From Anaerolineales bacterium (GTDB lineage Bacteria; Chloroflexota; Anaerolineae; Anaerolineales; E44-bin32), in assembly GCA_034430695.1 (NCBI GenBank), contig DAOUEE010000158.1, forward strand, positions 1 to 64,000: a DNA stretch of 64,000 nucleotides. The letters are read 5' to 3'. Under the pieces are notes generated by a model. It saw only the letters and a list, made by a program, of their open reading frames with translations. It ran no database searches and had not been told where the DNA came from. Below, in pieces: positions 9,055 to 63,400 of this stretch. The translations under genes and the position numbers were made by a program. The stretch's first letter is position 1, and each line of letters starts with the position of its first letter.

Positions 9055-9076
9055 CCTATATTATCTCGTATTATGG

Positions 9077-12115: not shown

Positions 12116-12123
12116 TCAGACTC

Positions 12124-12918: not shown

Positions 12919-13568
12919 CAGACTTCCGATTGGGTTTCCCCTTGATCCTCCGAAGCAGTGGACTCTTCAGTCGAAGGAAGTGATTCGAGATTCAATGGAG
13001 GAAGCTGATCCAGAGATTCGATTCCGAATTGCTGGAGAAATTCCGTAGTCGTCGCATAGAGGATCGGTCTGCCGGGGCTTTCACTTCTGCCGGTCTCTTC
13101 GATGAGACCATAACGCAGCAAAGTCCGCAGCACGCTGTCCGAATTGACGCCGCGTACGGCATCGATCTGTGGACGAGTGACAGGCTGCTGGTAGGCGATT
13201 ATAGATATCACCTCCAACGCCGCCGGGGTTAGACGCGAGGTGCTGTCCAACTGAAGGAATCGTTCCACATCTTCCGATAGTTCGGGCGCTGTAGTCAGTT
13301 GGAAAAGAGACCGGTGGTGCTGCAGCCTCAACCCCCGTCGCTTCAGGTCCTCATCCAACGTATCCAAGGCTTTCTGTATCAAACGAGGCGAGACGTCGAG
13401 TGCGGTCGCCAATTGTGAAACGGAAACCGGCGCAGGCGCAACGAAAAGCAACGCTTCGACGCGCGCGGCCAGATGATTCGTATTTTCCTCGGAAGCGGAC
13501 GGACGAACAGCCGTGCTATAATCACCTTCGGATTCTTTTTCTGGAGTGGATGTTTTTGTTGTCACCAA
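12918..13568 (-). CDS. scpB: Segregation and condensation protein B
   Basis: LEALLFVAPAPVSVSQLATALDVSPRLIQKALDTL... winged-helix repeats typical of ScpB. Confidence 0.8.
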   Translation of the reverse strand: MVTTKTSTPEKESEGDYSTAVRPSASEENTNHLAARVEALLFVAPAPVSVSQLATALDVSPRLIQKALDTLDEDLKRRGLRLQHHRSLFQLTTAPELSEDVERFLQLDSTSRLTPAALEVISIIAYQQPVTRPQIDAVRGVNSDSVLRTLLRYGLIEETGRSESPGRPILYATTTEFLQQFGIESLDQLPPLNLESLPSTEESTASEDQGETQSEV

Positions 13569-14143
13569 ACCTGCTCACCAAGAGTCGAATTTATACGCTT
13601 GCGGCTGCGATCATGATCCTGATTGCAAATCTCGCCTGCCAGTTGAACTTGGGCGGGCCCGAACCCCCCGGAGATCCGATTCCCACACAGGAAAACGCCG
13701 CCTTCAATCTCACAGAAATGTGGCAGTCTGCACTGCAGGATGCCGTTGAATCCGGCCAGGTCATCGTTATACTGAACGAAATTCAGCTCACGTCACTGCT
13801 CGGCCAGCGGATGGCGCAGAAAGAAAATCCGCTCTTGCTCGAACCACAAGTCTTTTTGCGTGACAAAATGATCCAAATTTACGGCACGACGAAAAACGGA
13901 CCCTTCACCGCCAATGTGCTGATCGGCATAACGCCGGTCATTAACGCTGATGGCGAGCTTTCTTTCGACCTCACCCGAGCCGAGTTTGGCCCAATCCCTG
14001 CACCATCAGCTCTCAAAGAAACCGTTTCCGCCATTCTCACCGAAGCCTTTACAGGCACGATCGGTTCTCTGGCGACGGGGATCAGAATTAGTTCGATCGC
14101 AATCTCCGACGGGGAGATGGGAATTGTCGGTGAGATACGCTAA
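13550..14143 (+). CDS. Hypothetical lipoprotein (internal start chosen over the ORF-track 13400 start)
   Basis: A signal peptide and lipobox-like 'IANLAC' follow the Met at 13550. The upstream 150 nt of the track ORF lie antisense inside scpB. Confidence 0.45.
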   Translation: MFLLSPNLLTKSRIYTLAAAIMILIANLACQLNLGGPEPPGDPIPTQENAAFNLTEMWQSALQDAVESGQVIVILNEIQLTSLLGQRMAQKENPLLLEPQVFLRDKMIQIYGTTKNGPFTANVLIGITPVINADGELSFDLTRAEFGPIPAPSALKETVSAILTEAFTGTIGSLATGIRISSIAISDGEMGIVGEIR

Positions 14144-14185
14144 TCGTCAAGTTTGACATTATACCAGTGCGAAGAATGACCAGCA

Positions 14186-15781
14186 ATGAAACCTGAGCAG
14201 AGACTGTTAAAAACCCTTCAAATCGCGTTCTCGGTCGCCTTCTTGATCGCTTCCTGTTCCGGTCCCCAAACGACAGCGGAGCAGATACAGGTCTCGATCG
14301 TCGTCGACGGCGAAGAAACCAAGTTGTCGATCCCGTCCGGATCGACGGTTCAAAATGCCATCGATATCAGCGGCATTACATTGGGGTCGCTCGACCGCCT
14401 CGACCCGCCGGGTTATACCCTACTCGACGCCGGTTCGACGATCATGATTACGCGCGTCGGCGAACGCTTCGAAATCGAACAAATCGAAATCCCCTTCGAA
14501 CGTCAAACCTTGCGCAACGAAGCCCTTCCGATCGGCGAATCCCACCTGCTGCAACCGGGATCGAACGGGCTGCAAGAGATCACCTACCGCATTTTGGAAG
14601 AAGGCGGCGTGGAAATTTCACGAACTCCGGTCAAGAACACGATCCTGGTCGAACCCATCCCGGAAATTGTCATGGTCGGGATCCAATCGGCTTACACACC
14701 GGTCTCCATCGAGGGGAGATTGGCTTACATATCGGGACAAAATGCCTGGATCGTCCAGGGCGACACCGGCAACCGCCGGCCGCTCGTGCTGACGGGCGAT
14801 CTGGACGGCTACATATTCAAACTCTCCGACGACGGGCGTTTCTTGCTCTTCACCCGCCAGGTCGAGGACGATGAGGATACGATCAATCGCTTATGGGCCG
14901 TTTCCACTACGGATGCAAACGCTGAACTCATCGATCTGAAAGTGGAGAACATCGTCCACTTCGCGGATTGGATGCCCGGCATCGATTCCCGTATCGTTGC
15001 CTATTCGACCGTCGAACCCAGCCCCGCCGCACCCGGCTGGCAGGCCAACAACGACTTGTTCACGGTTCGATTCACGGAATCGGGAGTTGTCTTCCGTCCA
15101 GAAACGGTGATCGAACCCAACGCCGGCGGCCAGTATGGATGGTGGGGGACGATGTTCGTCTGGGGCGAAGACCACCTTCACCTGGCGTACGCACAGGCGG
15201 ACAGCATCGGTTTCGTTGATTTCGACACCGCCAGCTTCGTCCCGGTTCAAGAGATTACGCCCTATCGAACGCTGAGTGATTGGGTTTGGGTTCCCGGGCT
15301 CACCTGGGGACGTGACAATCGGACTCTCTTTTTCATCGATCACGGAGCTCCGATCGCACTCGAAAATCCGGACGCCTCACCAGTATTCGACCTCGTGGCA
15401 CTCAGCGGTCAGGGCGGCTTGCGTCTGCCGCTTGCGGAAAGAACGGGGATGTTCGCCTTCCCGACGGTCTCCCCGGCCAGCCTGCTGGATACCGGCGAAA
15501 TCGAATACAAGCTGGCATTTTTACAGGCAATCTCACCGCTGGAAAGCGATACGAGCAATTACCGATTGACCGTCTTGGATCGAGACGGCAGCAACCTTCA
15601 GGGAATTTTTCCCCCGCTTGGTGAAAGCGGTTTAGAACCGCAGCCCGTCGTATGGTCACCAGGAGCCAATCAAATTGCCGTCATTTACCGTGGAGATCTC
15701 TGGATCGTGGATGTCGCCAGTGAACTGGGGCAAAGGATCACCGCGGAAGGCCTGACGCTCTCGATGGATTGGAGTCCCTGA
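14186..15781 (+). CDS. Lipoprotein with DUF348-like + G5 domains and a C-terminal TolB-like beta-propeller
   Basis: Lipobox LIASC. A YabE/RpfB-like segment 'VSIVVDGEETKLSIPSGSTVQNAI' is followed by a G5-like '...ISRTPVKNTILVEPIPEIVMVG'. The C-terminal propeller repeat is 'WSPGANQIAVIYRGDLWIVDV'. Confidence 0.55.
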   Translation: MKPEQRLLKTLQIAFSVAFLIASCSGPQTTAEQIQVSIVVDGEETKLSIPSGSTVQNAIDISGITLGSLDRLDPPGYTLLDAGSTIMITRVGERFEIEQIEIPFERQTLRNEALPIGESHLLQPGSNGLQEITYRILEEGGVEISRTPVKNTILVEPIPEIVMVGIQSAYTPVSIEGRLAYISGQNAWIVQGDTGNRRPLVLTGDLDGYIFKLSDDGRFLLFTRQVEDDEDTINRLWAVSTTDANAELIDLKVENIVHFADWMPGIDSRIVAYSTVEPSPAAPGWQANNDLFTVRFTESGVVFRPETVIEPNAGGQYGWWGTMFVWGEDHLHLAYAQADSIGFVDFDTASFVPVQEITPYRTLSDWVWVPGLTWGRDNRTLFFIDHGAPIALENPDASPVFDLVALSGQGGLRLPLAERTGMFAFPTVSPASLLDTGEIEYKLAFLQAISPLESDTSNYRLTVLDRDGSNLQGIFPPLGESGLEPQPVVWSPGANQIAVIYRGDLWIVDVASELGQRITAEGLTLSMDWSP

Positions 15782-15784
15782 AGA

Positions 15785-16750
15785 ATGCCCAAAGCGCGAA
15801 TGCGAATCGTTGTGACCGGTGGAGCCGGGTTTATCGGTTCACATCTCTGCGATTACCTGCTTCAAAGAGGTCATCAAGTCGTCATCATCGACAATCTCCT
15901 CACGGGCAGCCTGGAAAATATTGCCCATTTCGAAGGAAATGGAGACGTACTATTCATCGAGCAGGACGTATCGGAGCACATCTCCGTTCCGGGCAGGATC
16001 GACGCTGTGATGCATCTCGCATCACCGGCCAGTCCGAACCAATCGTCGCCGTACGGCTATCCGCAATTATCGATTCAGACATTGAAGGTCGGCTCGCTAG
16101 GCACACACAACGCTCTCGGGGTCGCGCGGGCACACGATGCAGCGTTTCTGCTCGCCTCGACTTCTGAAATCTACGGCGATCCGGAAGTCCATCCGCAGTA
16201 TGAAGAGTACTTCGGCCATGTGAACCCCGTAGGAATCCGCTCCGTGTACGATGAAGCGAAGCGCTTTGCGGAGGCCATAACGATGGCCTACCACCGCAAA
16301 CACGGCTTGCGCACGCACATCGCTCGGATCTTCAACACCTTCGGCCCTCGCATGCGCCTCGACGACGGTCGCGTCGTACCCAACTTCATCGGCCAAGCTC
16401 TTCAAAATAAACCGTTAACGGTGTACGGCGATGGCAAGCAGACCCGTAGTTTTTGCTACGTAAGCGACACCGTCGAAGGCCTTTATCGTTTACTTCAAAG
16501 CGACTACAATCTGCCGGTCAACATCGGGAATCCGGTCGAAATGACGATCATGCAATTGGCCGAGTTGATCAACCGCCTGACGAAAAACCAGGCCGGAATT
16601 GAAACCCTGCCCGACTCACGCGCGCCGGCCGATCCACAACGCCGGCAACCGGACATTTCACGCGCGCGGGAGATTCTCGATTGGACACCGCAGGTAGACA
16701 TCGAAGCAGGATTGGAACGGACCATAAAGGATTTTCAAAGCCGCTTATGA
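15785..16750 (+). CDS. UDP-glucuronate decarboxylase-like NAD-dependent epimerase/dehydratase
   Basis: Rossmann motif [12 protein letters not shown], YxxxK motif YDEAKRFAE, and a UXS-like C-terminus. Confidence 0.8.
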
Positions 16751-17241
16751 ACGCAACTACAAGAAGACGTCGGGAAATCATACGCTTTGTCAAGTTTTCA
16801 GTCGTTGGGACGATCGGAGCCGTCGTCGATTTCGGCACCTTCAACCTGTTGAATTCCGTTGTTGGCCTGGACAGCCTGCCGTCCAGTGTGTGCTCCTTCA
16901 CGGCTGCAATCATCAGTAATTTCATCTGGAATCGCTATTGGACCTACCCGGATTCGCGTTCCAAACCCATCCCCCATCAAGCCACGCAGTTCTTTGGCGT
17001 AAATCTGATCGGCCTGCTGATCCGCACTCCGATATTTGCTTTTTCGGAGGACCCCATGACTCGGCTTGCAGAATGGCTGCTCGCCAACATCCCTTCCACG
17101 TTTCCACCCGGCGATGCTTCGTTCCTTCCGATCGAGAGCGCAGTCCTGGGCAGCAATCTGGCACTCGCCACGGCGGTCATCGTCGTCCTGTTCTGGAATT
17201 TCACGGTAAACCGCATTTGGACCTATTCAGACGTCTCCTAG
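16747..17241 (+). CDS. GtrA-family membrane protein
   Basis: ATGA overlap with the upstream gene. '[23 protein letters not shown]' is a GtrA-like N-terminus. Four TM helices. Confidence 0.7.
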
Positions 17242-17306
17242 AATAGATCAAGCAATCATGCGTAATTGAGGATCACCTGGCTGTACAGATACGGGTTCGA
17301 CGAAGT

Positions 17307-17322
17307 GTAAGTTTAAACTTAC
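17307..17322. promoter_or_regulatory. Perfect 16-bp palindrome GTAAGTTTAAACTTAC with TGTATAAT -10-like box (17360-17367) upstream of gene at 17398
   Basis: Seen directly in sequence. The palindrome lies about 40 nt upstream of the -10-like element and about 75 nt upstream of the ATG. Confidence 0.3.
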
Positions 17323-17397
17323 GATGTAATTACAAAACTTTCGAACAATTTCGTGGGCTTGTATAATGGATCACACCTCAACGGAGCTTGACAATCG

Positions 17398-17778
17398 ATG
17401 ACCAAGAAATTGAGAAAGCCGATCCCGATTTATACTACCCCCGGAGATTGGTCCGCCTTACTCGTTTTCCCGTATATCTACAACACGCTGGGCGAATGGA
17501 TCGGTTGGGTGACACCGAATAAAGAGGTTTTCGATGTCAACGGGGTATACGTCGGATGGCTGACGAAAGACCCCCGCATACTCACCAAACGCATCCCACA
17601 ACGTCCGCTCGTTCGTAGAGATCCGCCCGTAGAACCCCAACGCATCCGGCCCCCCGCGACCGTCCCGCTGCCACCAATGATGTCCGATCTTCCCTTCGAA
17701 ATCATCGATGTACTCGACGAAGCCCCGGACCGTCTGCACACGACGGATGCCGCTGGATACCGGGAGGACATGGATTAA
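17398..17778 (+). CDS. Hypothetical small protein with internal repeats (GEWIGWVT / GVYVGWLT) and Pro-rich C-terminus
   Basis: 126-aa ORF with a promoter-like element upstream. No recognised family. Confidence 0.45.
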   Translation: MTKKLRKPIPIYTTPGDWSALLVFPYIYNTLGEWIGWVTPNKEVFDVNGVYVGWLTKDPRILTKRIPQRPLVRRDPPVEPQRIRPPATVPLPPMMSDLPFEIIDVLDEAPDRLHTTDAAGYREDMD

Positions 17779-17782
17779 CCGA

Positions 17783-18283
17783 ATGCCGCACGATGAAATC
17801 GAAGCCAAACCCGTGCACGCCTCCAGGGTCGTACTCAGTCAACTCATGCAACCGGGACAAGCCAACTCTCGAGGGGACGTACACGGAGGGTGGATCATGA
17901 AGTTGGTCGACGAAGCGGGCGCGCTGGCAGCCATGCGTCATGCGCAATGCAGAGTCGTTACCGTCGCCATCGATCAGATGTACTTCCTCGAACCCATCCG
18001 TATCGGCGATTTGGTCATCCTGGAAGCGGAAGTAACTTATGTCGGCCGGACGTCCGTCGAGACGCGCGTGCAGGTACATGCGGAGAATCCCGTAACCGGT
18101 CAAAGGACGCACACCAACACCGGCTTCCTGGTCTATGTGGCACTCGACGACGACCGCAATCCGAAGACCGTCCCCAGACTGATTGCGGAGACGGAAGACG
18201 AAAAGCGGCTTTTGGCCGGCGGGAAACAACGTCAAGCTCATCGACTTGCCCAGCGAAAGCAAGATATACGCGAAGGCACCTGA
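17783..18283 (+). CDS. Acyl-CoA thioesterase, hotdog fold (YciA-like)
   Basis: 'SRGDVHGGWIMKLVDEAGALAAMRHAQCRVVTVAIDQMYFLEPIRIGDLV' is typical of YciA/Acot-type hotdog thioesterases. Start chosen at ATG 17783. Confidence 0.75.
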   Translation: MPHDEIEAKPVHASRVVLSQLMQPGQANSRGDVHGGWIMKLVDEAGALAAMRHAQCRVVTVAIDQMYFLEPIRIGDLVILEAEVTYVGRTSVETRVQVHAENPVTGQRTHTNTGFLVYVALDDDRNPKTVPRLIAETEDEKRLLAGGKQRQAHRLAQRKQDIREGT

Positions 18284-51702: not shown

Positions 51703-52086
51703 GGCAACACCTCCTCCATCGAATTCTGTATCTCACGAAAGACAGTGAAACATACTGCCTGTTTAATCTACACCACAATGGAAGAACAGTAAATTCCACG
51801 GGCTCAAATTAGATCGGATCCAAACGGTCTAGCCAGGAATGGTCCAGACCATTTTACACAAATCGCGAAGCAGAATATAATGGTGGTTCACTTGCGTCGC
51901 ATTAGAAACCATTGGAATGTGAAGTCGAGCACGTTTCCCGAAATGCCGTCAGGTGTTTTTTCATACCAGGACAGATGTTGAGGTGACTTTGCAAGCCAAA
52001 TGAAAGGTCTACTTTCTCACTTATGATGTACCCTTAGCTTAGATTCAGCGGTAATTCAGGAAGGCAAACGCTTTGGGAGAATCGAC

Positions 52087-53052
52087 TTGACGAATCAAGG
52101 TGCAGATACCAGGCATTTGCTCATCGTTGACGATGAGCATGAAATCTTGAAGGCCCTGACCAATTACCTGAGTAAACTATACGATGCGTATACGGTCGAT
52201 ACGGCAAATAGCGGCGCGGCTGCCCTTGAAAAGATCAAAAAAGGTTCATACGAGCTGATCATAACCGATTACATGATGCCGACCATGAACGGCCTGGAAT
52301 TGGCCAAGGCTGCTCGTGAAATCTCTCCGGATACGAAGGTAGTCCTTATTACAGCATACGGAAATAAGGAGTTGCGTTCGTCCGTCGAAGATTTGAATCT
52401 CGAGGGCTTCATCGATAAACCCTTCAGCATGGCACAGATTCGGGAGATCGTGGAAAAAGCAATTGGCTCGATGAACGGCGACGACCAACCCAACATGCAA
52501 GGTCTTAGCGAACCACTGCGGGACAAATTGAATAAATTGCAGGCCGATTCCGGAGCTTCATGCGTTTTACTGCTGAGCGCAAACGGCTACACGGTCGAAA
52601 CCGCAGGTGTTACGAGCGGTATGGACACTTCAAACATCAGTGCACTCGTGGCAGCGAATTTCGCAGCTTCGTCCGAATTGGCCAGAATCCTGAAGAGTAA
52701 TTCCGTTTTCAAATCCAGTTTCCATGAAGGGCCAGAATACAACATTTACGCTCACGATGTGGATGGCGACTTCCTCCTGGCGGTAATTTTCGGTTCGGAA
52801 ACCAAACCTGGTGCGGTATGGCACTACACCAAACAAACGGCCGTCGAATTGGCGCCATTGATCGCCGATCAGAAGGAAGCGGAAATCGATTCCGACAACC
52901 TGGCGGAAGCGATGAATGCCGAACTCGACAATTTGTTGGATGATGAGATCCTGGTGGACATCGGTACAGGAGAATTAATCACGTTCGAAGACGCCATGAA
53001 TGCCGGACTCGTTCCATCCGAGTTGAAAGAATCAAAGAAGGGCAAAATGTGA
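52087..53052 (+). CDS. Response-regulator receiver fused to Roadblock/LC7 (MglB-like) domain
   Basis: TTG start with GGGAGA RBS. REC 'LLIVDDEHEIL...LIITDYMMPTMNG...VVLITAYG'. The C-terminal 'CVLLLSANGYTVETAGV...FLLAVIFGSE' has a Roadblock pattern. Confidence 0.75.
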   Translation: MTNQGADTRHLLIVDDEHEILKALTNYLSKLYDAYTVDTANSGAAALEKIKKGSYELIITDYMMPTMNGLELAKAAREISPDTKVVLITAYGNKELRSSVEDLNLEGFIDKPFSMAQIREIVEKAIGSMNGDDQPNMQGLSEPLRDKLNKLQADSGASCVLLLSANGYTVETAGVTSGMDTSNISALVAANFAASSELARILKSNSVFKSSFHEGPEYNIYAHDVDGDFLLAVIFGSETKPGAVWHYTKQTAVELAPLIADQKEAEIDSDNLAEAMNAELDNLLDDEILVDIGTGELITFEDAMNAGLVPSELKESKKGKM

Positions 53053-53140
53053 CGTTTTCAAGGGATGAGGTTTGTGTGTAGCGTTTGAAGTGTTGGTGAG
53101 TTGACGTTATATTTCGGCTTATGATGGAGGAACTACCAAG

Positions 53141-53713
53141 ATGTATATTAACCAAAAGCTGGGCGAGTTGCACATCAAAATTGTATACTACGGCCCTGCT
53201 CGCAGTGGAAAAACGACAAACCTGCAATTCATCCACGGACACATCAACCCAAAAGCGCGTGGTGAATTGGTTTCTTTGAAAACGCGCGAAGATCGAACGA
53301 TTTTCTTTGATTTCATGCAATTAGAACTCGGGAAAATCAACGGCCTAAAACCTAAATTCAGCCTGTATACGGTGCCTGGGCAGGTGTATTACGAAGCAAG
53401 CCGAAAACTTGTCCTTCAGGGTTCCGATGGAGTCGTGTTCGTTGCCGACTCGCAGCGCGATCGTTTATCTGATAACATCAGCGATCTCAAGGCGCTGGAA
53501 CAGTACTTGATACAGCTGGGGACGCCGATGGATTCATTCCCGTGCGTCATTCAATTCAACAAGCAGGATCTACCCGACGTGATCGAGCCCGATGATCTAA
53601 AGACGCAGATGAATATCAACGGTGTTCCTTGTATGGGCTCGTCCGCGATCAAGGGCCATGGCGTATTCGATACTTTGAAAACCATCATAAATCTTGTGGT
53701 TAAACAACTATAA
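53141..53713 (+). CDS. mglA: MglA-like Ras-superfamily small GTPase
   Basis: P-loop GPARSGKTT, intrinsic Arg finger 'EDRTIFFDF', switch-II 'TVPGQVYY', G4 'NKQD'. It is collinear with M. xanthus MglA over its full length (190 aa). Confidence 0.85.
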   Translation: MYINQKLGELHIKIVYYGPARSGKTTNLQFIHGHINPKARGELVSLKTREDRTIFFDFMQLELGKINGLKPKFSLYTVPGQVYYEASRKLVLQGSDGVVFVADSQRDRLSDNISDLKALEQYLIQLGTPMDSFPCVIQFNKQDLPDVIEPDDLKTQMNINGVPCMGSSAIKGHGVFDTLKTIINLVVKQL

Positions 53714-53739
53714 ATCTTAGGAAACAAAGGCATTAACCT

Positions 53740-54450
53740 ATGGCAGTTCAGGGGAATCTTATTGACATCAGTCTATCCAGTCTGATTAGCATTAATTGCA
53801 ACGAGATGAATCAAGCACGCCTGCTTGTGAAACATCGGGATCAAGAAGGAACCTTGTTTTTCGATGAAGGGGACATCGTCCATATGACCCTGGGTTCACA
53901 AGAAGGAGAAGACGTGATCTTCGAACTTCTTACCTGGGAAGACGGAACGTTCGAATTAACGAGGGACATACGCGCACCAAAACGCAGCGTCGAGACCAAC
54001 TGGTCCCATTTGCTGTTGGAGGGACTGCGGCGCATCGACGAGCAAACCCTCATGAAAAGCGGTGACGATGACGATGCCAATCGCGAAAAACAGAAATCGG
54101 AACATGAAGCTGCCGAACGCATGGCCAAAGATTTCACGCGGATCAATGGCATCGAAGGTGCACTTGTTACTTCGAAATATGGTGATGTACTAGGTTTCGA
54201 GGCAATGAAAAATCCCAAAGCGACGGCGGCTCTCGCAGCTTTCGCAGGACGACGGGCAGAAGAATTGGGCATCCTGTTGAACGCCGGGGCGCTTCAGCAA
54301 ATCACCATGTCTGGCGATGGCTGGAGAATGATCGTCTTTCCGTCTGAAAAACACTTGACGGCATTATCCATGGATCCCAAAATTTCAGTGAGTGCTACAG
54401 CCAATGCATTACAAGCCACGAAGAGAAGGCATCGAAAGGAAAAAGTTTGA
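53740..54450 (+). CDS. DUF4388 + Roadblock/LC7 two-domain protein
   Basis: The N-terminal 'GNLIDISLSSLISI...GTLFFDEGDIVHMTLG...LTWEDGTFEL' is DUF4388-like. The C-terminal 'INGIEGALVTSKYGDVLGF...WRMIVFPSEKHLTALSMD' is Roadblock. Confidence 0.7.
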   Translation: MAVQGNLIDISLSSLISINCNEMNQARLLVKHRDQEGTLFFDEGDIVHMTLGSQEGEDVIFELLTWEDGTFELTRDIRAPKRSVETNWSHLLLEGLRRIDEQTLMKSGDDDDANREKQKSEHEAAERMAKDFTRINGIEGALVTSKYGDVLGFEAMKNPKATAALAAFAGRRAEELGILLNAGALQQITMSGDGWRMIVFPSEKHLTALSMDPKISVSATANALQATKRRHRKEKV

Positions 54451-54542
54451 TGCATTGAGGACAGACCCGGAAATTTCTATTCGAGCGATCGTCGAAAACG
54501 GAATGCGTTTCGACAAAGATTGGCTCTCATAGGAGAATTGAG

Positions 54543-55553
54543 ATGTTATTACCAAAGGGAAAACCGATCTACGAAAATCTGAACACATCATTTACGAGTT
54601 TCGGCAAGTTGCTGCTGGATCTCAAGTCCAATGGCTTCACCGGATACGTCTACATCAGTTTCTGGGACTACGAAGCCGCTTTGTTCATGGACAACGGCAA
54701 CATCATCAACGCCATCGAAGAAACCGGCGGAAACAGGAAAACCAGCCACGATGCCGTCGGTAGCATCACTGCAAAAGTCAATCAGAAGGATGGTTCCATC
54801 AGCGTGTACAGCCTCTCACCAAAGAAGGTAACCATGCTCGCCAGTACAGTGAGAAGCGAAGTGCGCTACAAGGACCTCAACACTGATTTCACCAGCCTCG
54901 AAAAACTTATTGCAAAACTGAAGAGCGAGGGGCACACCGGTTACATCGAGGTCAGGATGACGGGTGGTGATGGTATAGCCATTGTCTTCCTCGAGAACGG
55001 TGAAGTCGTCGAGAGCATCCTCTCGATGCAGGATGAGGCGATATCCGGTGATGCGATCTTGCCTCACATTATCGAAAACGCTTCGACATTGGGCGCAGAT
55101 TTCAACGTGTACAACGCCGCCATTGAAGCCTCATTCGCCGAAAGTGAGGAAATCGAAGCCGGCTTCGACCTGCCGCGATTGCTGGCCGTGTGGGGCGAAA
55201 CGATAGGTGCGATCGAAAGAATGGCGGACAGCACAATCGGTAGAGGACAATTCCTCGAAGCCTTCAAATATGTCATGATCGAGAAGGCCAATGAATACCC
55301 GTTTCTGGATCCTTTTGCCGGCTTGTTTCAATACAAGGACGGCAGAATCCAATACAGCGGAGATGCGAAGAACCTGAGCAAAGGTCTCAGTGATTGTCTG
55401 AGTACGACAATCGAGCAGCTGGCCTCCCAACCGGCAGCCGCCGATCTGGAACACAGAATCCAGACCGAAATGAAGGCGGTCAAGGACAAATACGACGACA
55501 CGATCAAGCGCTTGGGCTTGGGGCCATTCATCCTTGGTTTCACGGCCGATTAA
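54543..55553 (+). CDS. Protein with two tandem DUF4388-like repeats and helical C-terminal region
   Basis: Internal repeat 'LNTSFTSFGKLLLDLKSNGFTGYVYISF...NGNIINAIE' versus 'LNTDFTSLEKLIAKLKSEGHTGYIEVRM...NGEVVESIL'. Confidence 0.55.
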   Translation: MLLPKGKPIYENLNTSFTSFGKLLLDLKSNGFTGYVYISFWDYEAALFMDNGNIINAIEETGGNRKTSHDAVGSITAKVNQKDGSISVYSLSPKKVTMLASTVRSEVRYKDLNTDFTSLEKLIAKLKSEGHTGYIEVRMTGGDGIAIVFLENGEVVESILSMQDEAISGDAILPHIIENASTLGADFNVYNAAIEASFAESEEIEAGFDLPRLLAVWGETIGAIERMADSTIGRGQFLEAFKYVMIEKANEYPFLDPFAGLFQYKDGRIQYSGDAKNLSKGLSDCLSTTIEQLASQPAAADLEHRIQTEMKAVKDKYDDTIKRLGLGPFILGFTAD

Positions 55554-55562
55554 GAGCAAATC

Positions 55563-56000
55563 ATGGACCAAGTACTCGCAGAAATCAACGCGTTGGACGG
55601 TGTACTCGGATCGTTCATCTGCGATAATCGCGGCAACGTGATCGTGAATGCTGTTCCCGCAAATCTGAACATCGCTGTGCTGCGGGGAATCAGCCGTCAA
55701 GTGACGCAAGCAATCGCTGCCAGGATACAAAACGGCATCCAAGAAATTGACCTAACCTATGAAGGAATCCGGGTGCTGATTCGCGCCCTCAACCAGGCCG
55801 CACTCGTGGTAATCTGCGAATCGAATGTGGACATCGCCCTTCTTCGACTGACATTGAATGTCAGCTTATCCAAGCCGGAATTCGGATCACAGCTTACCAA
55901 CATAGCACCCAAGGAACAGGTTATCCGGATCGTGCAGGAAGTCGATGTCGATGAAATATCCTGGCGCCTATATCGATCCATTAATGAGGGAGTCATGTGA
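55563..56000 (+). CDS. Roadblock/LC7 (MglB-like) domain protein
   Basis: 'INALDGVLGSFICDNRGNVIV...ALVVICESNVDIALLRL' is the classic Roadblock pattern. 145 aa. Confidence 0.7.
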   Translation: MDQVLAEINALDGVLGSFICDNRGNVIVNAVPANLNIAVLRGISRQVTQAIAARIQNGIQEIDLTYEGIRVLIRALNQAALVVICESNVDIALLRLTLNVSLSKPEFGSQLTNIAPKEQVIRIVQEVDVDEISWRLYRSINEGVM

Positions 56001-56788
56001 TGGCAGAAGCTTTACGGGGTGATCTACACCAATTATCACTCCCGAACATTATTCAGTTGTTAAAATCGGGGGGCCAGACGGGAAAAATTGATTTGACGGA
56101 CGGAAACAACACCGGCGAGATTTTCCTCGAGAACGGCAACATCGTCCACGCGATTGCCGGCGTTCTAATTGGGGAAGAAGCCTTCTATTCCCTTTTATCA
56201 TGGTTGCACGGAGATTTCAATTTCGTCAGTGGTATTGAAGCCCCAGAGGAAACGATTTCAACCTCCACAGAGCTGCTCCTCGCCGAGGGAGAAAAACGCA
56301 TCCAGGGATGGTCAGAAATCAAAAACGTAATACCTTCGATGCAGGCGATTTTCAATCTTGCCGAAGGAACAACGGGAGCGATCAACCTCGATCCGAACGA
56401 ATGGAAAGTCCTTGCGCAGGTAAATGGCGTTCGCACGATCAACGATATCGCCGCATCTCTCGGATGGGATGAATTCGAAGCCGCAAGCGTCCTGGCCGCT
56501 CTCGTAAAGACGGGGCTGCTTGAAATAGTTGAAGAATCCAAGTCACCTCCCGTCACGGCCATCGACAACGAGTTTTTCGATCGGCTCAATGATGAATTTA
56601 TTGAGGTAATCGGTCCTGTTGGGCCGGTGATCATCGACGAAAAGATCGCTTCGTTGAATGAAACCAGAGAGTCTTTCCCGCGCAACAAAGTCGCTGACCT
56701 GGTGGAACAAGTAAGTACGGAAATTGAAGACACGGATCAACGCATGCATTTCCAACAGATCATGTTGGATCTGTTGCGAGGAATCTAG
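55997..56788 (+). CDS. DUF4388 domain protein
   Basis: 'LRGDLHQLSLPNIIQLLKSGGQTGKIDLTDGNNTGEIFLENGNIVHAIAG...EEAFYSLLSWLHGDFNF' is a near-consensus DUF4388. ATGTGATG overlap with the upstream gene. Confidence 0.75.
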   Translation: MMAEALRGDLHQLSLPNIIQLLKSGGQTGKIDLTDGNNTGEIFLENGNIVHAIAGVLIGEEAFYSLLSWLHGDFNFVSGIEAPEETISTSTELLLAEGEKRIQGWSEIKNVIPSMQAIFNLAEGTTGAINLDPNEWKVLAQVNGVRTINDIAASLGWDEFEAASVLAALVKTGLLEIVEESKSPPVTAIDNEFFDRLNDEFIEVIGPVGPVIIDEKIASLNETRESFPRNKVADLVEQVSTEIEDTDQRMHFQQIMLDLLRGI

Positions 56789-56872
56789 CCCGGCGATGAA
56801 GGAGTACTTACCACTGTAGCCATCTGCGGTTTGCCGGATTTTGCGATGACGAGTAAGGAGATCTAAACAAAG

Positions 56873-57655
56873 ATGAGATTGACCATCGGTAGAAAATTAG
56901 GACTTGGCTTCGGAATTCCATTGGTCCTGTTGGCTTTGATCGGGATTGCTGTTTTCATCGGATTCAACACGCTTACCAACGCAGCGCGAGATTCAATCGC
57001 AGCTCAGCAAACGATTGAATTCATGGAAAGAGGCATGAAGCTCCTGCTGACGGAACGTATCTTGTTGAGCCATCAATTCGCAACCGGTGAGGAAACAACG
57101 GCGGCTGAATCTCGAAACGACTACATGCAGGAATGGGCGCTCGTCGTAGAAAATACAAGCACTCGATATTCGGATCTAGTGATGGAAATCCAACGAGCGG
57201 TCACGATATATCACCAATATCTAGATAGGGCACAATCAACCTACGAGACCAATCCAAATGACGCCCCCGACGCGTTACGCGAACTGGATGAAGCCGATAT
57301 ATTCTTCATTCAAATTGTACGACCTACCATGGACGATTTACTTTCCACTGCCGTTACAGAAAAATCACAACTCGTCGATGTCCTTGAAAATCAAATTATC
57401 GGCATTACGAGAATCGCGCTCCTCGTCGTCGTCATTGGAATCATTATTTCTGTATTCAGCGCGCTCACAATCCGGCGTGGCCTTACGAACGCGGCCTTGT
57501 ATCTGAGCTCTGCAGCCGAGAGCATCAGCCGCGGCGATTTGGACACTCCCATTATCGCTGAGACTGGTGACGAGATGGAAGATCTTGCCCGCTCGATTGA
57601 GCGCATGAGGGTCAGTCTGAAAGCTGCGATCGAACGATTGCGGAGAAGAACATAA
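56873..57655 (+). CDS. Membrane sensor: TM - four-helix-bundle extracytoplasmic domain - TM - HAMP, no output domain
   Basis: TM1 'LGFGIPLVLLALIGIAVFIGF', TM2 'ITRIALLVVVIGIIISVFSALTI'. The HAMP-like 'RRGLTNAALYLSSAAESISRGDLDTPIIAETGDEMEDLARSIERMRVSL' is followed by the stop. Confidence 0.65.
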   Translation: MRLTIGRKLGLGFGIPLVLLALIGIAVFIGFNTLTNAARDSIAAQQTIEFMERGMKLLLTERILLSHQFATGEETTAAESRNDYMQEWALVVENTSTRYSDLVMEIQRAVTIYHQYLDRAQSTYETNPNDAPDALRELDEADIFFIQIVRPTMDDLLSTAVTEKSQLVDVLENQIIGITRIALLVVVIGIIISVFSALTIRRGLTNAALYLSSAAESISRGDLDTPIIAETGDEMEDLARSIERMRVSLKAAIERLRRRT

Positions 57656-57835
57656 CCATGTGTTACAAGCAAGTTTGTCGGGAAATCAACACCACCCTTC
57701 ACATACCTGACGATGGGACGAGCTTTGAACTCACCCAAAATCCGTCGTTCCAGCGTAAATTCGGCGGGACTTCCAACAACGTCTGCATGATTTCGGACTT
57801 GAAAGTCAACGCCAACCAATTTCGGGAGGTACCCA

Positions 57836-58327
57836 ATGCCAGATAAAGTGGTAATACCCCCAGCTCTGATGACGAAGATCATCAAGATCATGTCGCAATT
57901 GCTGGAGAAAACTCAAGCATGCTGTGTCTTGCTTGCGGACATCAGCGGTCAGCTGATCTGCCAACAAGGGTTTACCAAGACCTTTGATCCGGTCATCTTG
58001 TCTGCTTTAACCGCCAGCAACATGGCTGCAACGGCGGAGATCGCCCGCCAGATCGGTGAGGAAAATCCATTCAAACTCATGTTCCACGAAGGGGACGATC
58101 AGAATATCTACCTTTCGAACGTTGCCGGCAGTTTCCTGCTCGTTGTCCTGTTCAGCACGAAAGTCCAGATCGGTCTTGTACGCCTATTCACCGGGCAGGC
58201 CGTGAAGAACCTCATTCCACTTGCCGCGGAGTTCGAACGCGTACAAAAGGAACAGGGACGCATTGTCGATGATGAATTTGGTCAAGCATTGACCACAGAG
58301 ATTGAGAGTCTGTTTGGCGATAATTAA
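57836..58327 (+). CDS. Roadblock/LC7 domain protein
   Basis: 'ACCVLLADISGQLICQQG...FLLVVLFSTKVQIGLV' has a Roadblock pattern. Confidence 0.65.
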   Translation: MPDKVVIPPALMTKIIKIMSQLLEKTQACCVLLADISGQLICQQGFTKTFDPVILSALTASNMAATAEIARQIGEENPFKLMFHEGDDQNIYLSNVAGSFLLVVLFSTKVQIGLVRLFTGQAVKNLIPLAAEFERVQKEQGRIVDDEFGQALTTEIESLFGDN

Positions 58328-58360
58328 CATTCGATACTTTGTGGCTGAAGGAAGGTTACG

Positions 58361-58753
58361 ATGAATTATCAACAAGTTGATTTGGCCACGTACCAACCGG
58401 TAACACTCGATGAACTTCTGCTCACCTTGCACGAGCAAGGTCAATTCGAGACTGCCGTCCTCGCGAGCGGTGAGGGATTGCCTATCGCGACCGTACCTGC
58501 GAACTTCGATACGGATAAAGCGGCAGCCATGATTGCGATGCTTAAAAGAGTGAGCAAGGAGGCACGTGATCAGTTTCCACTTGCAGAAATTGATGAATTT
58601 TCCATTCTTGATTCCAATCGGATGCGTTTGGTTTGCCGATATTTGAAAGCCGGCGGCGAGGAAATGATTCTTGCGGTCATTGCGCCGCCAGACCACAGCT
58701 ACCGCCGTATGACGAACCAGGCCATTAAACAAATCGTTGAATTCCTTTCTTGA
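58361..58753 (+). CDS. Roadblock/LC7 domain protein
   Basis: 'TAVLASGEGLPIATVPAN...MILAVIAPPD' has a Roadblock pattern. 130 aa. Confidence 0.65.
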   Translation: MNYQQVDLATYQPVTLDELLLTLHEQGQFETAVLASGEGLPIATVPANFDTDKAAAMIAMLKRVSKEARDQFPLAEIDEFSILDSNRMRLVCRYLKAGGEEMILAVIAPPDHSYRRMTNQAIKQIVEFLS

Positions 58754-58780
58754 TTTCGAAGGTTGATCGATCCGTGATTT

Positions 58781-60010
58781 GTGAAATGTATTCAGGTGAT
58801 GAACGGAACAGGCGGAAGTATCTCAGAAGTTGGTATCAAATCTCTCTCGACGATCGACCGATCGTGTGAAAGGAAAGAGTTCGAAGAATTCTTCCATGGT
58901 CAATTCGATCAATATTTCGCGCGTAGCGAGACGCGACAACAAGCCCTGCATTACGTCCAATCACTGCTCTTAGATTCAGATCCCAAATCCAACGGTAAGA
59001 AACCCCCTGCCTATAGGAAATTCTCGAAGTCCGCCCAGAGGTTGTTTTTCGGCGCGCAATGGGACGACGAAGCCGTACACCACCGTCTCCAGGATTTCAT
59101 CGTTGCAGAATTGGGCCATGAAAAAGGCGTATGCCTCATTGGTGTGACGTATTTCTCTAAAAAGGGAGAAAAAACGGTCGGAGTACAGTCGCAATTCAAT
59201 CGCAAACTCAAGAAGGACCAGAATTGTCAGGTTTGCCTGTTCCTGGGGTATGCCTCCCCGAAGGGTTGTACATTTCTCGACCGTCGTCTCTACCTTCCCG
59301 TGCAATGGACGGAAGACCAAAAGCGCAGAGCCGAAGCGAAAATCCCCGAGGACATCGAATATCGAAGCAAGTCCGATCTTGCCTTGGACATGCTTCAATC
59401 GGTCCATGCCATCGGAGCACCCATTCATTGGGTGGTTGGCGGCGAACCATTCTGCAGCGATACGAATTTACGCAACGTCATACAAGCGGCTGGCATGAAT
59501 TACATTCTCTCCGGCCGGGATACGGATTCGAGTTTCCGAAACTTGAATCACAAGCAAACAACGTCTGATCCGAACAACCAGGAAGATGAAGCCTGTGATT
59601 CTTCTATCTTCAAGATCGTAACCAATTGGAACGAGAAGAAATGGAAGCGCGTAATCGATCGTTCGAACGGAGATGAAATCTGTGTCTTCGATTGGGCTTC
59701 GGAGCGTGTTCTCGAGTTCCAGAACGAAACCGATTCCCAGGAAGTCTGGCTGTTGGCTCGCCGGCCGGTGAGTCAGCGATGCGAAACCGCGTATTTCATC
59801 TCCAACGCTTCACAGGACGCAACTCTTTCCAACCTCGCCGAGAAAATCAGCGGCTTGGGGATACTCGATCAGATGGTATCAGAAGCATGCACGAATTTTA
59901 TGATGGACGTGTACGGAGTGCGCCACTGGAACAGCTGGCATCGTCATATCACTCTATCGATGATCGCCCATGCCTGGTGGGTATACAAAGGGAAAAGGAC
60001 GTTACGATGA
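58781..60010 (+). mobile_element. IS701-family DDE transposase homolog with apparently substituted catalytic residues (possible domesticated/decayed transposase)
   Basis: Family blocks recalled from memory: 'F..F...F.R.E.R..A..Y..SLL', 'KKGEKTVGVQSQF...NCQVCLFLGYAS', 'LDRRLYLPVQWTED', 'WVVGGEPF', 'VRHWNSWHRHITLSMIAHA'. At the positions expected for D-D the sequence reads IGVTYF (not DETGF) and GGE (not GDE). It lies 27 nt after the upstream gene and has an ATGA overlap with the downstream gene. Confidence 0.65.
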
Positions 60011-60447
60011 ACCATCCTCCATTTTCGATAGAAGGATGTGATCAGACGCTGCAGGAAGAGCAGACCAATACGTGCGGACAAGGGAAAACCATCCTGTTTG
60101 TAGAAGACAATGACTTGATGCGAGAAATCGGCGCGCAGATATTGGAGGATTTGGGGTATCGAGTCATCTGCGCCGCGAACGGTCAAGAAGCGTTTGACAT
60201 CTTCAATGAGACAGAGCATATCGATTTGATATTCACCGACGTAGTGATGCCTGAGATCAGCGGTGCAGCTTTGCTCCAGAAAATTCGGGCAGCCGGTTCG
60301 CTCGTTAAAGCCGTTGCCGTGACGGGCCACGTCCTGGCGGAGGACCTGGATCGATTACGGGAAGTGGGTGTCACATCGATTATTCGAAAACCCTACGACG
60401 TCGACATCCTGGCTGATGCAGTCCGTGAAGCGTTGGAAAATGGGTAA
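60007..60447 (+). CDS. Stand-alone CheY-like response-regulator receiver
   Basis: 'TILFVEDNDLMREIG...DLIFTDVVMPEISG...AVAVTGHV' with Asp and Lys at the expected receiver positions. Confidence 0.8.
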   Translation: MNHPPFSIEGCDQTLQEEQTNTCGQGKTILFVEDNDLMREIGAQILEDLGYRVICAANGQEAFDIFNETEHIDLIFTDVVMPEISGAALLQKIRAAGSLVKAVAVTGHVLAEDLDRLREVGVTSIIRKPYDVDILADAVREALENG

Positions 60448-60474
60448 TTGCGGTTGAATGGATCGGGAGAAATC

Positions 60475-63400
60475 ATGGCGACTGAGAAGAGCAAGAAGGC
60501 ACATTTATCGCAAGCGGACGACACTCCAACTGCCCGTCCGACACTCGCCTTTCTTACCGCGACCATGGAAGATCACTTCAGCCTGGCCATGTGGACCGCG
60601 ATCGTCGAAGCCGCCCACGAGCGAAATGCAAACGTGATCAGTATCGCGGGTGGGAATTTGAATGACGCAGACGACGATGTCAGCGCAATGAGGTCAATCT
60701 ACCGGGCTGCGAATGAAGACTTTATCGATGCCATCATCATCTACGGATCGAGATTAGGAACCTACGTATCCCCAAAGACGTTTCGTGATTTTTGCGGTCA
60801 ATTCACATCCAAACCGTCTGTCAGCATCGGCCAGCAAGTCGAGGGGATCCCCGCTGTTCTTTCCGATAACTACGTCGGAATGCACCTTTTGGTCCGGCAT
60901 CTCATTCACGACCACGCATATCAACGTATTGCTTTCGTTCGGGGACCAGAAGGACAGATCGAGGCAGAAACACGATTCCAAGCTTATAAAGACGCGCTCA
61001 TTGAATCCGGCCTTGATATCGACCCCGGTTTGATTTCAGAACCTGGTATATGGGAGTCTATATCCGGCGAGGAGGCCGTTCGATCGTTCGTCGACGAGCG
61101 GGATTTAGCTCTCGATGCAATCGTCTGCGCAAACGATACCATGGCCCTCGCAACGATGTGGGCTTTGAAAAACCGAGGCCTGGCTATTCCGGACGATGTT
61201 GCCGTCGTGGGATTCGACAGCCAGGCCATTGCGAAAGCGGCTACACCGCCCCTCTCTACGGTCCGGCAACAATTGAAAGAACAATGTCGGCATGCCGTCG
61301 ACATCGTGTTAACCCAATTGGCGGGCGGCGACGTCCCCGATCGGATCGAAATTCCCACAAAACTCTGCATCCGTCAATCGTGTGGCTGTACCTCGTCCGC
61401 GGTTGGACGCGCGATCACGAAAACAAATCTCGATAACGGCGGCAGGAAAATTTCGGACGCAAAACGGGAAGACATTCTTTCGGAGATCGCGCACATCGTT
61501 GATACGACAGTCGCAGGGTCGGACGCCAAGTGGAGTAATAGATTATTCGATACATTTCTCGCAGATATTGAAAATAATCTCTCGAATTCATTCCTGCGAG
61601 AACTCAAATCTTGTATCGAAGACACGATTTCCCTCGAGACTGAAATTAACGAATGGCAAAGAGTAGTATCGTTGCTTCGCCATTTTACGCGGAGTAAGTA
61701 TGCCGACGAGGCGACCACGGAGCGAATCGAGGAGCTGAGTAATCAAGCACGTGTGCTGATCGGCGATAAAGTCCAACAAATCGAAACGCATCAATCGCTG
61801 ATCTACGATCAACAATACGCCAACCTGCGAGACACGACCAGGGCATTATCGACGGCTCTCGAACTCGACGATTTGCTCGACACCCTCCATCGCAGTTTGC
61901 CCCGCTTTGGAATACGAAGTTGCTACCTATCTCTGTACGAAAAAAACCTTCCATCTATTGAGAGCGAAACAAAAATCGGTTCGTTTCCTTTAAAGATGAT
62001 TCTCGCCTTCGACGACAAAGGCATATTGCCGCTCGAGTCCGAAGCAGCAGACATTTCGACAAACATACTTCCACGGCGAAAAATTTCGACCATTTCCGGC
62101 AAATGGTCTTTCGTAGTCAAAGCACTTGAGCGTGCAGATGATCCACTGGGGATCGTTCTCTTTGAAGTCTATCCTCCGGACGGAAGATCCTGCGACATGC
62201 TGCAAGAACAAATCAGCAGCTCACTCGCCTACGCATTGCTTCTCCAGGAACGACAGCAAGAGCATGAAGTACTCCAACAAGCCTACACGGAAGCTGAGAA
62301 GCAGGCCAGGGAAAAGGAGATCGAGCTGGAGTTTGAGATCGTAGACCGTGAGCAGGCCCAACAAGCACTTCTGCGAGAGCAGCACCTGTTACGCATACTC
62401 ATGGATAACTCCCCGGACGCTATCTATTTCAAGGACAAGGAAAGTCGCTTTATTAAGGTCAACCAGTCGTTTGCCAAAATACACGGCAAAGAAACCTCAG
62501 ACGATCTTCTGGGATTATCCGATTTCGATCTGTTTACCGAGGAACACGCGAGCGAAGCATTCGAAGACGAGATGCGCGTACTCAAGACAGGCGAACCGAT
62601 TGTCGGCAAAGTAGAGAAGGAGACTTGGCCAGACGGCCACGAAACCTGGGTCTCGACGACCAAATTGCCCATGCGGGATGATAAGGGGAACATAACGGGG
62701 ACCTTCGGTATTTCCCGAGATATAACCGAATCCAAACTAGTAGAGCAGGAACTTCGTCGCCATGCCGCCCATCTCGAGGCGATCAACACCATCATAAGCT
62801 CTACTTCGACAGCCGTCGATTTTCAAGATCTGCTGAAAATTTCCCTAGATTTATCTCTCTACGCGGTTGAAATGAATATGGGATTCATCTGGCTTCCGCC
62901 TCACACCGTATCTCGAAAATTGCTGCCGCCAGAGAACGAATTCCCTCACTACGATTTCGATCCCGAAAGTGCCGAACTACCGGAGATTCTCGTTGTCGAT
63001 GATTGGCAAAAAGTGCCGCAAGAAGATTTGCGTTTTCGTTTCTACGAGACATATCTCAAACCGCATGGCGTTCGGGCCTCGATCACAGTTCCGATTAAAG
63101 CCGAGGAAGGGAATCGACTCGGCGGGTTATGTATCGCTTCTCCCCAGGCATTCAAATGGACCACAGAAGAGTCTACACTTTTAGAAGCGGTCGGCTACCA
63201 GATTGGAATTGCAGCCGAGCGGCTGCGGCTGGTCGATCAGATTCGCGAACAGATGCAGCAGGTGCAGCAAATCACGGATACCGTCCCGGATGGTGTTCTC
63301 CTGCTTGATTCGAGCCATCGCGTCATTCTCGTAAATCCGGCAGGAACTCGAGATTTGCATTCGCTGGCGAAAGCTTCTGTTGGGGACGAGATTTCCCATC

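Follow-up and report, generated by a model that had tools for sequence, protein, structure and literature searches.

A probable domesticated transposase of the IS701 family inside a signaling operon of Anaerolineales

We describe a gene for a homolog of the transposases of the IS701 family of insertion sequences (IS) that lies within a signal-transduction operon of an Anaerolineales bacterium, in the first 64,000 nucleotides (nt) of contig DAOUEE010000158.1 (assembly GCA_034430695.1; hereafter, the window), and we put forward evidence that this gene is very probably a domesticated, or exapted, transposase. The gene and its orthologs, which form a tight clade, combine descent from a transposase and a position shared by diverged lineages with purifying selection and the loss of family hallmarks. 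A catalytically dead homolog whose gene is kept intact at one spot of an operon across diverged lineages would therefore serve the cell in some other way. The original prediction, made from the letters of the window, had proposed an immobilized and possibly co-opted transposase-derived protein inside a signaling operon, and this proposal is supported here by alignment, by the analysis of transposon ends, by synteny and by the ratio of nonsynonymous to synonymous substitution rates (dN/dS, or omega).

Transposase domestication is well documented in eukaryotes. In prokaryotes it is rare, and most examples retain or re-purpose nuclease chemistry (Cas1, Cas9/Cas12, TldR). The literature that we retrieved describes no IS701-family protein that has been domesticated or has lost its catalytic activity, and its accounts of domestication are almost all eukaryotic, TldR excepted. 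The novelty of the present case lies in the apparent domestication of a bacterial insertion-sequence transposase of the Asp-Asp-Glu (DDE) type inside a signaling operon; if true, it would be the first domestication of a DDE transposase into a prokaryotic signal-transduction pathway.

Family membership, catalytic signature and fold

The open reading frame (ORF) occupies positions 58781-60010 of the forward strand and encodes 409 amino acids (aa) if read from its GTG codon. All orthologs begin at an ATG equivalent to 58799 (MNG.../MSV...), and the true start is therefore probably this ATG, which gives a 403-aa product preceded by a spacer of 45 rather than 27 nt. The 27-nt gap originally reported after the last Roadblock gene is thus accurate as the distance from the end of its stop codon (58753) to the GTG, but gives way to 45 nt with the start used by the orthologs. 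At the opposite end, the overlap of stop and start codons (ATGA) stands as first described, with the TGA at 60008-60010 overlapping the ATG of the downstream receiver gene at 60007-60009. The window protein matches Pfam DDE_5 (E = 3.8e-35) and scores 245.8 bits against the NCBIfam IS701 equivalog NF033540, above the curated cut-off of 150 bits and over profile positions 4-359 of 363, which bears out the claim of homology along the full length. Identity to IS701 transposases with an intact triad is 34-38% over the full length, and the motifs KKGxKxVGVQ, NCQ, FLDRRLYLP and VRxWxSWHRHITLS are common to the clade and to canonical members of the family.

IS701 elements measure 1400-1550 bp and are defined by a perfectly conserved DDE triad, a YREK motif lacking only the Tyr and 4-bp target duplications, with R-(3)-E-(6)-K as the motif defined for the IS4 and IS701 families (De Palmenaer et al. 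2008, PMC2266710). The columns scored here are correct because this family definition matches them. Residues were counted in an alignment of 119 sequences, comparing 110 canonical IS701 proteins with 8 clade members. The first catalytic Asp, present in 110 of 110 canonical proteins, is Gly in all eight clade members, and the second, again invariant in the canonical set (110/110), reads Gly in five members, Ser in two and Ala in one. Both the Arg of (Y)REK and the Lys of R-(3)-E-(6)-K are found in 110/110 canonical proteins, and in 8/8 clade members they have become Leu and Cys, respectively. The catalytic Glu (109/110) is replaced by Asp in the clade, except for one member with Asn and one with Lys. 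The window protein accordingly reads G115, G215 and D357, the last a conservative change that is Asn or Lys in the two orthologs just mentioned. These counts place IGVTYF and WVVGGE, which the original prediction had singled out as substitutes for DETGF and GDE, at the canonical DETGF and W.TGDE positions, and they uphold its suggestion that the basic residue following the catalytic Glu had been lost, so that D, D, E and the R and K of (Y)REK are all replaced relative to the canonical set. Since the second Asp and the Glu positions vary among orthologs, no catalytic constraint would be left there. Judged from these substitutions, a two-metal DDE site should be impossible in the clade protein, and the cutting and joining of DNA would have been lost.

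An active recombinase with a non-canonical active site, for which one might invoke E216 next to the second Asp position and the acidic residue retained at position 357 in most members, is extremely improbable. The first Asp is Gly in every member, the second position varies among Gly, Ser and Ala, and residue 357 is Asn or Lys in two members; a site this variable amounts to no conserved catalytic center, and such an enzyme would find no ends to process. Tn5 and related enzymes lose their activity upon single DDE substitutions.

The protein retains a Tn5-like architecture, with an RNase H-like core, a beta-barrel insertion domain and long C-terminal helices. Tn5 transposase itself is catalytically active and carries D97, D188 and E326 together with a full YREK motif. 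By sequence, no real match to IS701 was found in the PDB, and fold comparison was used instead; the closest solved structure is that of the Tn5 transposase (IS50, PDB 1mm8), at 7% sequence identity to the clade protein. A control model of the canonical protein P0014, with a predicted local distance difference test (pLDDT) score of 91.1, contains helices at residues 49-55 (WQLAEAVG) and 62-69 (QRLLYSA) that form a predicted helix-turn-helix (HTH). The first of these two helices is replaced in the model of the window protein, which has no helix at residues 58-76 and a pLDDT < 50 at residues 65-72. Between the core and the beta-barrel, the canonical GRPRxxPR arm has been deleted in favor of a linker that is acidic or polar and evolves fast.

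Going by Tn5, HTH helix 2, the GRPR arm and the R and K of (Y)REK are expected to hold transposon-end DNA. Their loss argues that the ancestral way of binding transposon ends is gone. At its N-terminus, the window protein bears a peptide, GGSISEVGI (58799-58860, residues 1-20), that is predicted to be disordered and is kept across the clade. Because it resembles the N-terminus of an intact IS701 transposase on a Streptomyces plasmid (MGGEISEVDA; L024, 5998-6060), this peptide appears to be ancestral and no new addition.

Position, mobility and selection

Contigs carrying orthologs were recovered by exact look-up and by scans (L001-L006, L009, L010, L012-L016, L017-L019, L020 and L021); a scan of a genome collection with the neighboring DUF4388+DUF8082 protein yielded 3 loci, 2 of them from one lineage, and a metagenome scan with the clade alignment yielded 5 loci. 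The comparison of orthologous loci, proposed as a check with the original prediction, places the gene at the same Roadblock/receiver junction in every contig showing neighbors (L001-L006, L009, L010 and L012-L021), with the short contigs showing the same immediate neighbors and with an order of 11 genes identical to that of the window where 10-kb flanks exist (L001, L003, L004 and L016). Orthologs with visible neighbors represent about ten lineages, at 65-91% amino acid identity and with synonymous divergence (dS) of up to ~1.9. The ORF begins 45 nt after the 130-aa Roadblock gene wherever the DNA downstream of the latter was examined, the length of this spacer being identical at all loci, and the DDE_5-like and receiver genes overlap by 1, 4 or 8 nt wherever their junction is visible, or by 34 nt at two loci where the gene caller picked an earlier receiver start. 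A database search with the 130-aa Roadblock protein recovered only 7 clusters of homologs, none below 78% identity, and its gene was encountered solely in association with the DDE_5-like gene. The titles of the metagenome-assembled genomes (MAGs) put the lineage in Anaerolineaceae/Anaerolineales.

The distribution of the protein is narrow. A search of 5.8 billion protein clusters recovered the clade (P0001-P0009) at 65-91% identity, after which identity drops to 43% (P0010) and then to 34-38% for more than 100 IS701-family homologs, all of which carry an intact DDE triad. In an exhaustive search of 1.84 billion representatives at 50% identity with a hidden Markov model, the clade forms a single cluster (848 bits) and is followed by P0010 (376 bits) and P0128 (323 bits), with ~10,000 IS701-like proteins at E < 1e-3. 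An outgroup operon was available from a more distant member of the Anaerolineales (GCA_964433755.1, CAYSSR010000002.1, positions 8925-18036 of a 722-kb contig; L025, 50% identity). It keeps the block of genes encoding the 336-aa, 145-aa-like, DUF4388+DUF8082, HAMP and 163-aa Roadblock proteins, beyond which come an unrelated 200-aa protein, a HisKA_3 kinase, the GTPase, a PilZ protein and three more Roadblock genes. No DDE_5 gene was found by tblastn in this outgroup operon (L025/L026), which fits a lineage-specific gain, and the gene content is consistent with a single sub-lineage having acquired the dead transposase, the 130-aa Roadblock and the receiver. Of the ~200 homologs of the 336-aa core protein, three are at 88-100% identity and the others at no more than 59%; this family is widespread and comprises some 200 clusters in the range of 45-59% identity.

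The gene shows no sign of transposon ends. The search of its flanks detected 28 inverted-repeat pairs around the ORF (of which the 25 longest are listed), and no pair brackets it. These pairs were rejected as chance occurrences, being short and 70-100% complementary, with most arms inside coding sequence. The room available for ends amounts to 45 nt on the left, or 27 nt if measured to the GTG, and to none on the right, in agreement with the earlier remark that the right end leaves no space for inverted repeats, and neither terminal inverted repeats nor a 4-bp target-site duplication are present. The gene occurs as a single copy in the window, and tblastn detected no copy elsewhere in the flanks of the orthologous loci, ~20 kb around; these observations, made on contigs rather than whole genomes, and the identical junction at all loci speak against mobility. 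A recent insertion was rejected for this gene.

These data also bear on the idea that the protein is a trans-acting inhibitor of IS701 transposition, which would poison or titrate active transposases in the manner of the Tn5 inhibitor protein. Dead or truncated transposases are known inhibitors in Tn5, and the C-terminal helices, through which Tn5 dimerizes, show strong conservation from canonical IS701 proteins to the clade. Such a role is nevertheless very improbable: the closest intact-triad IS701 transposases found are only 34-38% identical, making hetero-oligomers unlikely, the parts that would bind transposon ends are gone, the window and ~20 kb around the orthologs contain no further copy of IS701, and tight embedding with translational coupling in a signaling operon would be unexpected for an inhibitor.

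Degraded relatives of the family are common among public sequences. About 60 of 148 new representatives (P0128-P0275, among the 150 best listed) have lost at least one of the five signature residues (D, D, R, E and K), the first Asp often being Gly, and these degraded-triad proteins keep a C-terminal GLDxYEVRxWxxWxRHxTL block. NCBIfam scores all ten degraded relatives that were scanned, P0010 and P0128 included, as IS701 family transposase. Ten degraded relatives checked by cluster look-up turned out to be singletons or pairs on short contigs; most degraded-triad representatives may therefore be decaying copies, and their clustering may stem from long-branch attraction. The nearest neighbors of the clade in a neighbor-joining tree are P0010, in which both Asp residues are intact and the Glu and Lys have become Asp and Gln, and P0128, which carries Gly for the first Asp, Cys for the Arg and Asn for the Glu. 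Each shares 47-52% identity with canonical proteins and only 41-43% with the clade, which therefore sits on a long branch. Their contexts, on short contigs, contain no signaling genes and do not reveal the source of the clade. A tblastn search of plasmids with P0201, a dead protein of actinobacterial appearance, found nothing above 43% identity, and the best plasmid match of the window protein (H1, in Streptomyces) has an intact triad.

Selection was analyzed with the Nei-Gojobori (NG86) and YN00 methods on codon alignments of 8 orthologs, with YN00 giving similar values where it converges. The dN/dS comparison among orthologs, another of the checks put forward at the outset, gave an omega of 0.09-0.25 over 28 pairs for the DDE_5-like gene, the range of its faster-evolving neighbors (HAMP protein, receiver and 145-aa protein; Table 1). 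Among the pairs that are not saturated are the window and L017 (dS 0.42, omega 0.105), the window and L001 (dS 0.91, omega 0.109), and L004 and L016 (dS 0.26, omega 0.19). In sliding windows no part of the protein is free of constraint, which peaks in the RNase H core at residues 79-198 (omega 0.04-0.08), in the beta-barrel region at 279-358 (0.07-0.08) and in the C-terminal helices at 359-398 (0.06), and is weakest in the linker at 239-278 (0.30) and in the loop that replaces the HTH helix (0.20, the highest of the N-terminal windows). The reading frame is full length and intact in every lineage seen. GC content overall and at third codon positions (GC3, 0.58) both resemble those of neighboring genes and, since constraint extends along the whole protein, the gene appears to be an old, ameliorated and functional resident of the operon.

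The same results render hardly credible the notion of a decaying relic, that is, of an inactivated and functionless IS copy hitch-hiking in the operon. Its appeal comes from the many public IS701-like representatives with degraded triads, from the occurrence of those checked as singletons on short contigs, as decaying copies would be, and from the fact that the DDE_5-like gene is among the faster-evolving genes of the operon. It is contradicted by a frame that is intact everywhere at a dS of up to ~1.9 with the omega values given above, by constraint spread over the whole protein, and by conservation of both the position and the receiver start/stop overlap; a neutral copy would show stops and frameshifts at such divergence.

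Possible role in the operon

The DNA at the start of the gene is unusually conserved. The 45-nt spacer has a mean pairwise identity of 0.83, when values for the eight remaining intergenic spacers of the operon range from 0.48 to 0.71. Third-codon positions in the first ~150 nt of the gene have an identity of 0.71-0.74 versus ~0.55 further on, and the dS of codons 1-40 is 0.58 versus 1.5-1.9 elsewhere. The segment 58754-58950 thus appears to be conserved at the DNA level beyond the needs of the protein, and for this reason the spacer and 5' coding DNA may have a DNA- or RNA-level role. Rfam returned no hit in 58300-60500 at E up to 1. The fold obtained with RNAalifold for the spacer and 5' coding DNA is unconvincing, with a covariation contribution of only -2.79 kcal/mol and compensatory changes in 4 of 57 pairs, and a small hairpin in which the ATG would be paired varies so little that it is uninformative for covariation.

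One explanation that would make use of this segment is a transposase-derived DNA-binding regulator through which the phosphorelay would control transcription, in the manner of FHY3/FAR1 in eukaryotes or TldR in bacteria. It would still be a form of domestication, differing in mechanism from an adaptor, and the specific DNA site recognized by the dead protein could possibly be the conserved spacer ahead of the gene itself, as a remnant of the left IS end. Pfam scans of the operon reveal sensors, receivers and a GTPase switch but no recognizable DNA-binding output, which leaves room for such a regulator, as do the conservation of the spacer and first ~150 nt relative to other spacers and third-codon positions, the retained recognition-helix segment QRLFFGAxW and the many basic residues still in place (KKGxKTVGVQ, RRLYLP and KRRxEAKIP). 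We nonetheless consider it unlikely, given the loss of HTH helix 2, of the GRPR arm and of the R and K of (Y)REK; in addition, the conserved 23-mer upstream of the gene has no second copy on either strand of the 64-kb window at up to 3 mismatches, and the 45-nt spacer contains no promoter-like site.

The most likely role of the domesticated protein would be that of a non-catalytic adaptor or output partner of the co-translated receiver. A stoichiometric partnership with the receiver is proposed because the start/stop overlap is conserved, because the phospho-acceptor signature of the receiver is intact (DD..D..T..K, on reading the sequence) and because three giant hybrid histidine kinases (1235-1548 aa, Peripla_BP-PAS-GAF-HisKA-HATPase-REC) lie immediately downstream of it. 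The loss of the ancestral end-binding parts tilts the balance toward the adaptor over the nucleic-acid output. Under the proposed scenario, an IS701 copy would have become fixed between the Roadblock and receiver genes of a small-GTPase/Roadblock/PATAN/phosphorelay operon in one Anaerolineales lineage, and would have lost its ends, the DDE triad, the R and K of (Y)REK, one N-terminal HTH helix and the GRPR basic arm. Its Tn5-like architecture would have been kept, and the gene would then have been inherited vertically under purifying selection. The resulting protein would act as a non-catalytic binding module, probably dimeric through its retained C-terminal helices, and would be produced at a constant ratio to the receiver, the start codon of which overlaps the stop of the transposase-derived gene. 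As a partner of the phosphorylated receiver, itself fed by the three downstream hybrid kinases, it could link the phosphorelay to the GTPase/Roadblock switch (as an adaptor) or to a nucleic-acid target (as an output). In its complete form, the model of a Tn5-fold DDE transposase turned into a non-catalytic, phosphorylation-controlled partner of a CheY-like receiver, whether a dimeric adaptor or a DNA-binding output, within a Ras-like-GTPase/Roadblock/phosphorelay switch is put forward as a tentative and still rather doubtful proposal.

Several considerations weigh against this interpretation. All the sequences come from metagenomes or MAGs of one narrow Anaerolineaceae/Anaerolineales lineage, and the host role of the protein is read from genes and sequence comparison. 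The partnership with the receiver is drawn solely from the conserved start/stop overlap and from adjacency. Synonymous divergence is saturated in the deepest pairs, making omega reliable for the closer pairs only, and the placement of the clade beside other degraded IS701-like proteins in the neighbor-joining tree may reflect long-branch attraction. The net charge and isoelectric point of the conserved core are the same in the clade as in canonical IS701 transposases; core net charge does not separate the two and is therefore neutral with regard to nucleic-acid binding.

Among known systems, the closest are the IS701 transposases themselves (PMC2266710), with which the clade protein shares full-length homology and a Tn5-like domain architecture. 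Unlike them, it has no DDE triad, no R and K of (Y)REK, no HTH helix 2 or GRPR arm, and no inverted repeats or target duplication, and where IS701 elements move, its gene is a single copy fixed at one orthologous locus and evolving under purifying selection. Domesticated DDE transposases of eukaryotes, such as ALP1/ALP2 (PIF/Harbinger), FHY3/FAR1 (Mutator) and inactive PiggyMac-like proteins, resemble the clade in being transposase-derived, immobile, vertically inherited and under purifying selection, and several of them have lost their catalytic residues and serve as adaptors or DNA-binding proteins (PMC7282668 and PMC6143343). They differ in deriving from other superfamilies, whereas the clade gene is a bacterial operon cistron translationally coupled to a receiver. 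In bacteria, TldR, a nuclease-dead derivative of TnpB that acts as an RNA-guided transcription factor, has likewise lost its catalytic residues and been recruited beside host genes, in its case for a regulatory role (PMC10705468). TnpB, however, has a RuvC fold and is RNA-guided, whereas the clade protein has a DDE/RNase H fold and yielded no evidence of a guide RNA from Rfam or alignment folding. The operon itself shares an Arf/MglA-like GTPase, Roadblock/LC7 proteins, receivers and DUF4388/PATAN domains with MglA/MglB/RomR polarity modules and PATAN regulators, so that its building blocks are those of the Myxococcus polarity switch and of cyanobacterial PATAN regulators. To our knowledge, no described module of the MglA/Roadblock/PATAN type contains a transposase-derived protein, and the related operon L025 is also without it.

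The locus brings together the full set of sequence-based marks of domestication, namely a dead active site, absence of ends, fixed synteny, purifying selection and lineage-specific gain, and would provide a concrete example of bacteria recycling a non-catalytic transposase scaffold. It also exposes an annotation problem, in that NCBIfam and Pfam score such proteins as ordinary IS701 family transposases, and their genes then escape notice in routine annotation and are counted as mobile elements. If the interpretation is true, the many degraded-triad IS701-like proteins would suggest that exaptation of bacterial IS transposases is under-recognized owing to blanket annotation. The weight of the case is tempered by its narrow distribution (one cluster at 50% identity), by its uncultured host and by a view of function drawn from sequence.

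Features of the operon and minor observations

The coordinates of the genes and features discussed above are compiled in Table 1. The part of the operon upstream of the Roadblock genes spans 52087..57655 and is preceded by a promoter-like site at 51853-51881, with 11 of 12 positions matching. No terminator-like site was found on the forward strand in the intergenic spacers, the 3 hits all being inside coding regions.

Table 1. Genes of the operon and features of the transposase-derived gene in the window, with dN/dS ranges of neighboring genes (Roadblock proteins taken together, 0.015-0.16)
Feature	Position	Strand	Basis and remarks	dN/dS
REC-Roadblock fusion	52087-53052	+	Pfam scan	
Arf/MglA-like small GTPase	53141-53713	+	Pfam scan	
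DUF4388/PATAN protein	53740-54450	+	Pfam scan	
336-aa DUF2226-like protein	54543-55553	+	Pfam scan	
145-aa protein	55563-56000	+	Pfam scan	0.08-0.22
DUF4388+DUF8082 protein	56000-56788	+	Pfam scan	
HAMP membrane protein	56873-57655	+	Pfam scan	0.10-0.29
163-aa Roadblock/LC7 gene	57836..58327	+	Pfam scan; also in outgroup operon L025	0.015-0.16
130-aa Roadblock/LC7 gene, directly upstream of the transposase homolog	58361..58753	+	Pfam Robl_LC7	0.03-0.07
Spacer between Roadblock gene and ATG, 45 nt	58754..58798	+	Alignment of 9 loci	
IS701-derived transposase homolog, predicted to be catalytically dead	58799..60010	+	403 aa; alternative GTG 58781 = 409 aa	
Pro/Lys/Asn-rich variable loop, residues ~58-76, replacing HTH helix 2 (WQxAEAxG)	58970..59026	+	Model and alignment	
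GGT = Gly115, first catalytic Asp position	59141..59143	+	Canonical DETGF -> GVTYF	
GGC = Gly215, second catalytic Asp position	59441..59443	+	Canonical GDE -> GGE	
Former R-(3)-E-(6)-K block, L353 ... D357 ... C364	59855..59890	+	LGILDQMVSEAC; alignment columns	
146-aa single-domain response-regulator receiver	60007..60447	+	Pfam Response_reg E = 5e-22; ATG overlaps stop of the transposase homolog	0.08-0.25

A 62-aa ORF at 57658-57846, between the HAMP and 163-aa Roadblock genes, is predicted as a gene at some of the orthologous loci. Conservation is about the same at its codon positions 1, 2 and 3 (0.69, 0.64 and 0.68), a pattern shown by no other gene of the operon, and it is probably not a real protein-coding gene. 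Among the relatives of the transposase homolog, P0010 (541 aa; L007, 3346-5866) bears an N-terminal extension of ~140 residues that is not found in IS701 transposases, and no gene is called in the ~900 nt ahead of its own.

Divergence along the operon (52087-60447) is a mosaic when the window is compared with L001 and L003. L003 is nearer to the window than L001 in the REC-Roadblock fusion (92 vs 86%), in the 145-aa protein (90 vs 83%) and in both Roadblock genes, and much farther in the HAMP protein (71 vs 87%), the DUF4388+DUF8082 protein (85 vs 91%) and the dead transposase (70 vs 82%). This mosaic pattern suggests recombination between lineages within the operon. Upstream of the operon, three divergent genes are conserved in the orthologous loci, encoding an aldo-keto reductase, a 373-376-aa protein with no Pfam hit and a 172-aa protein (L001 149-667, L003 194-712, minus strand) that matches the Pfam family eCIS_core (PF13699).

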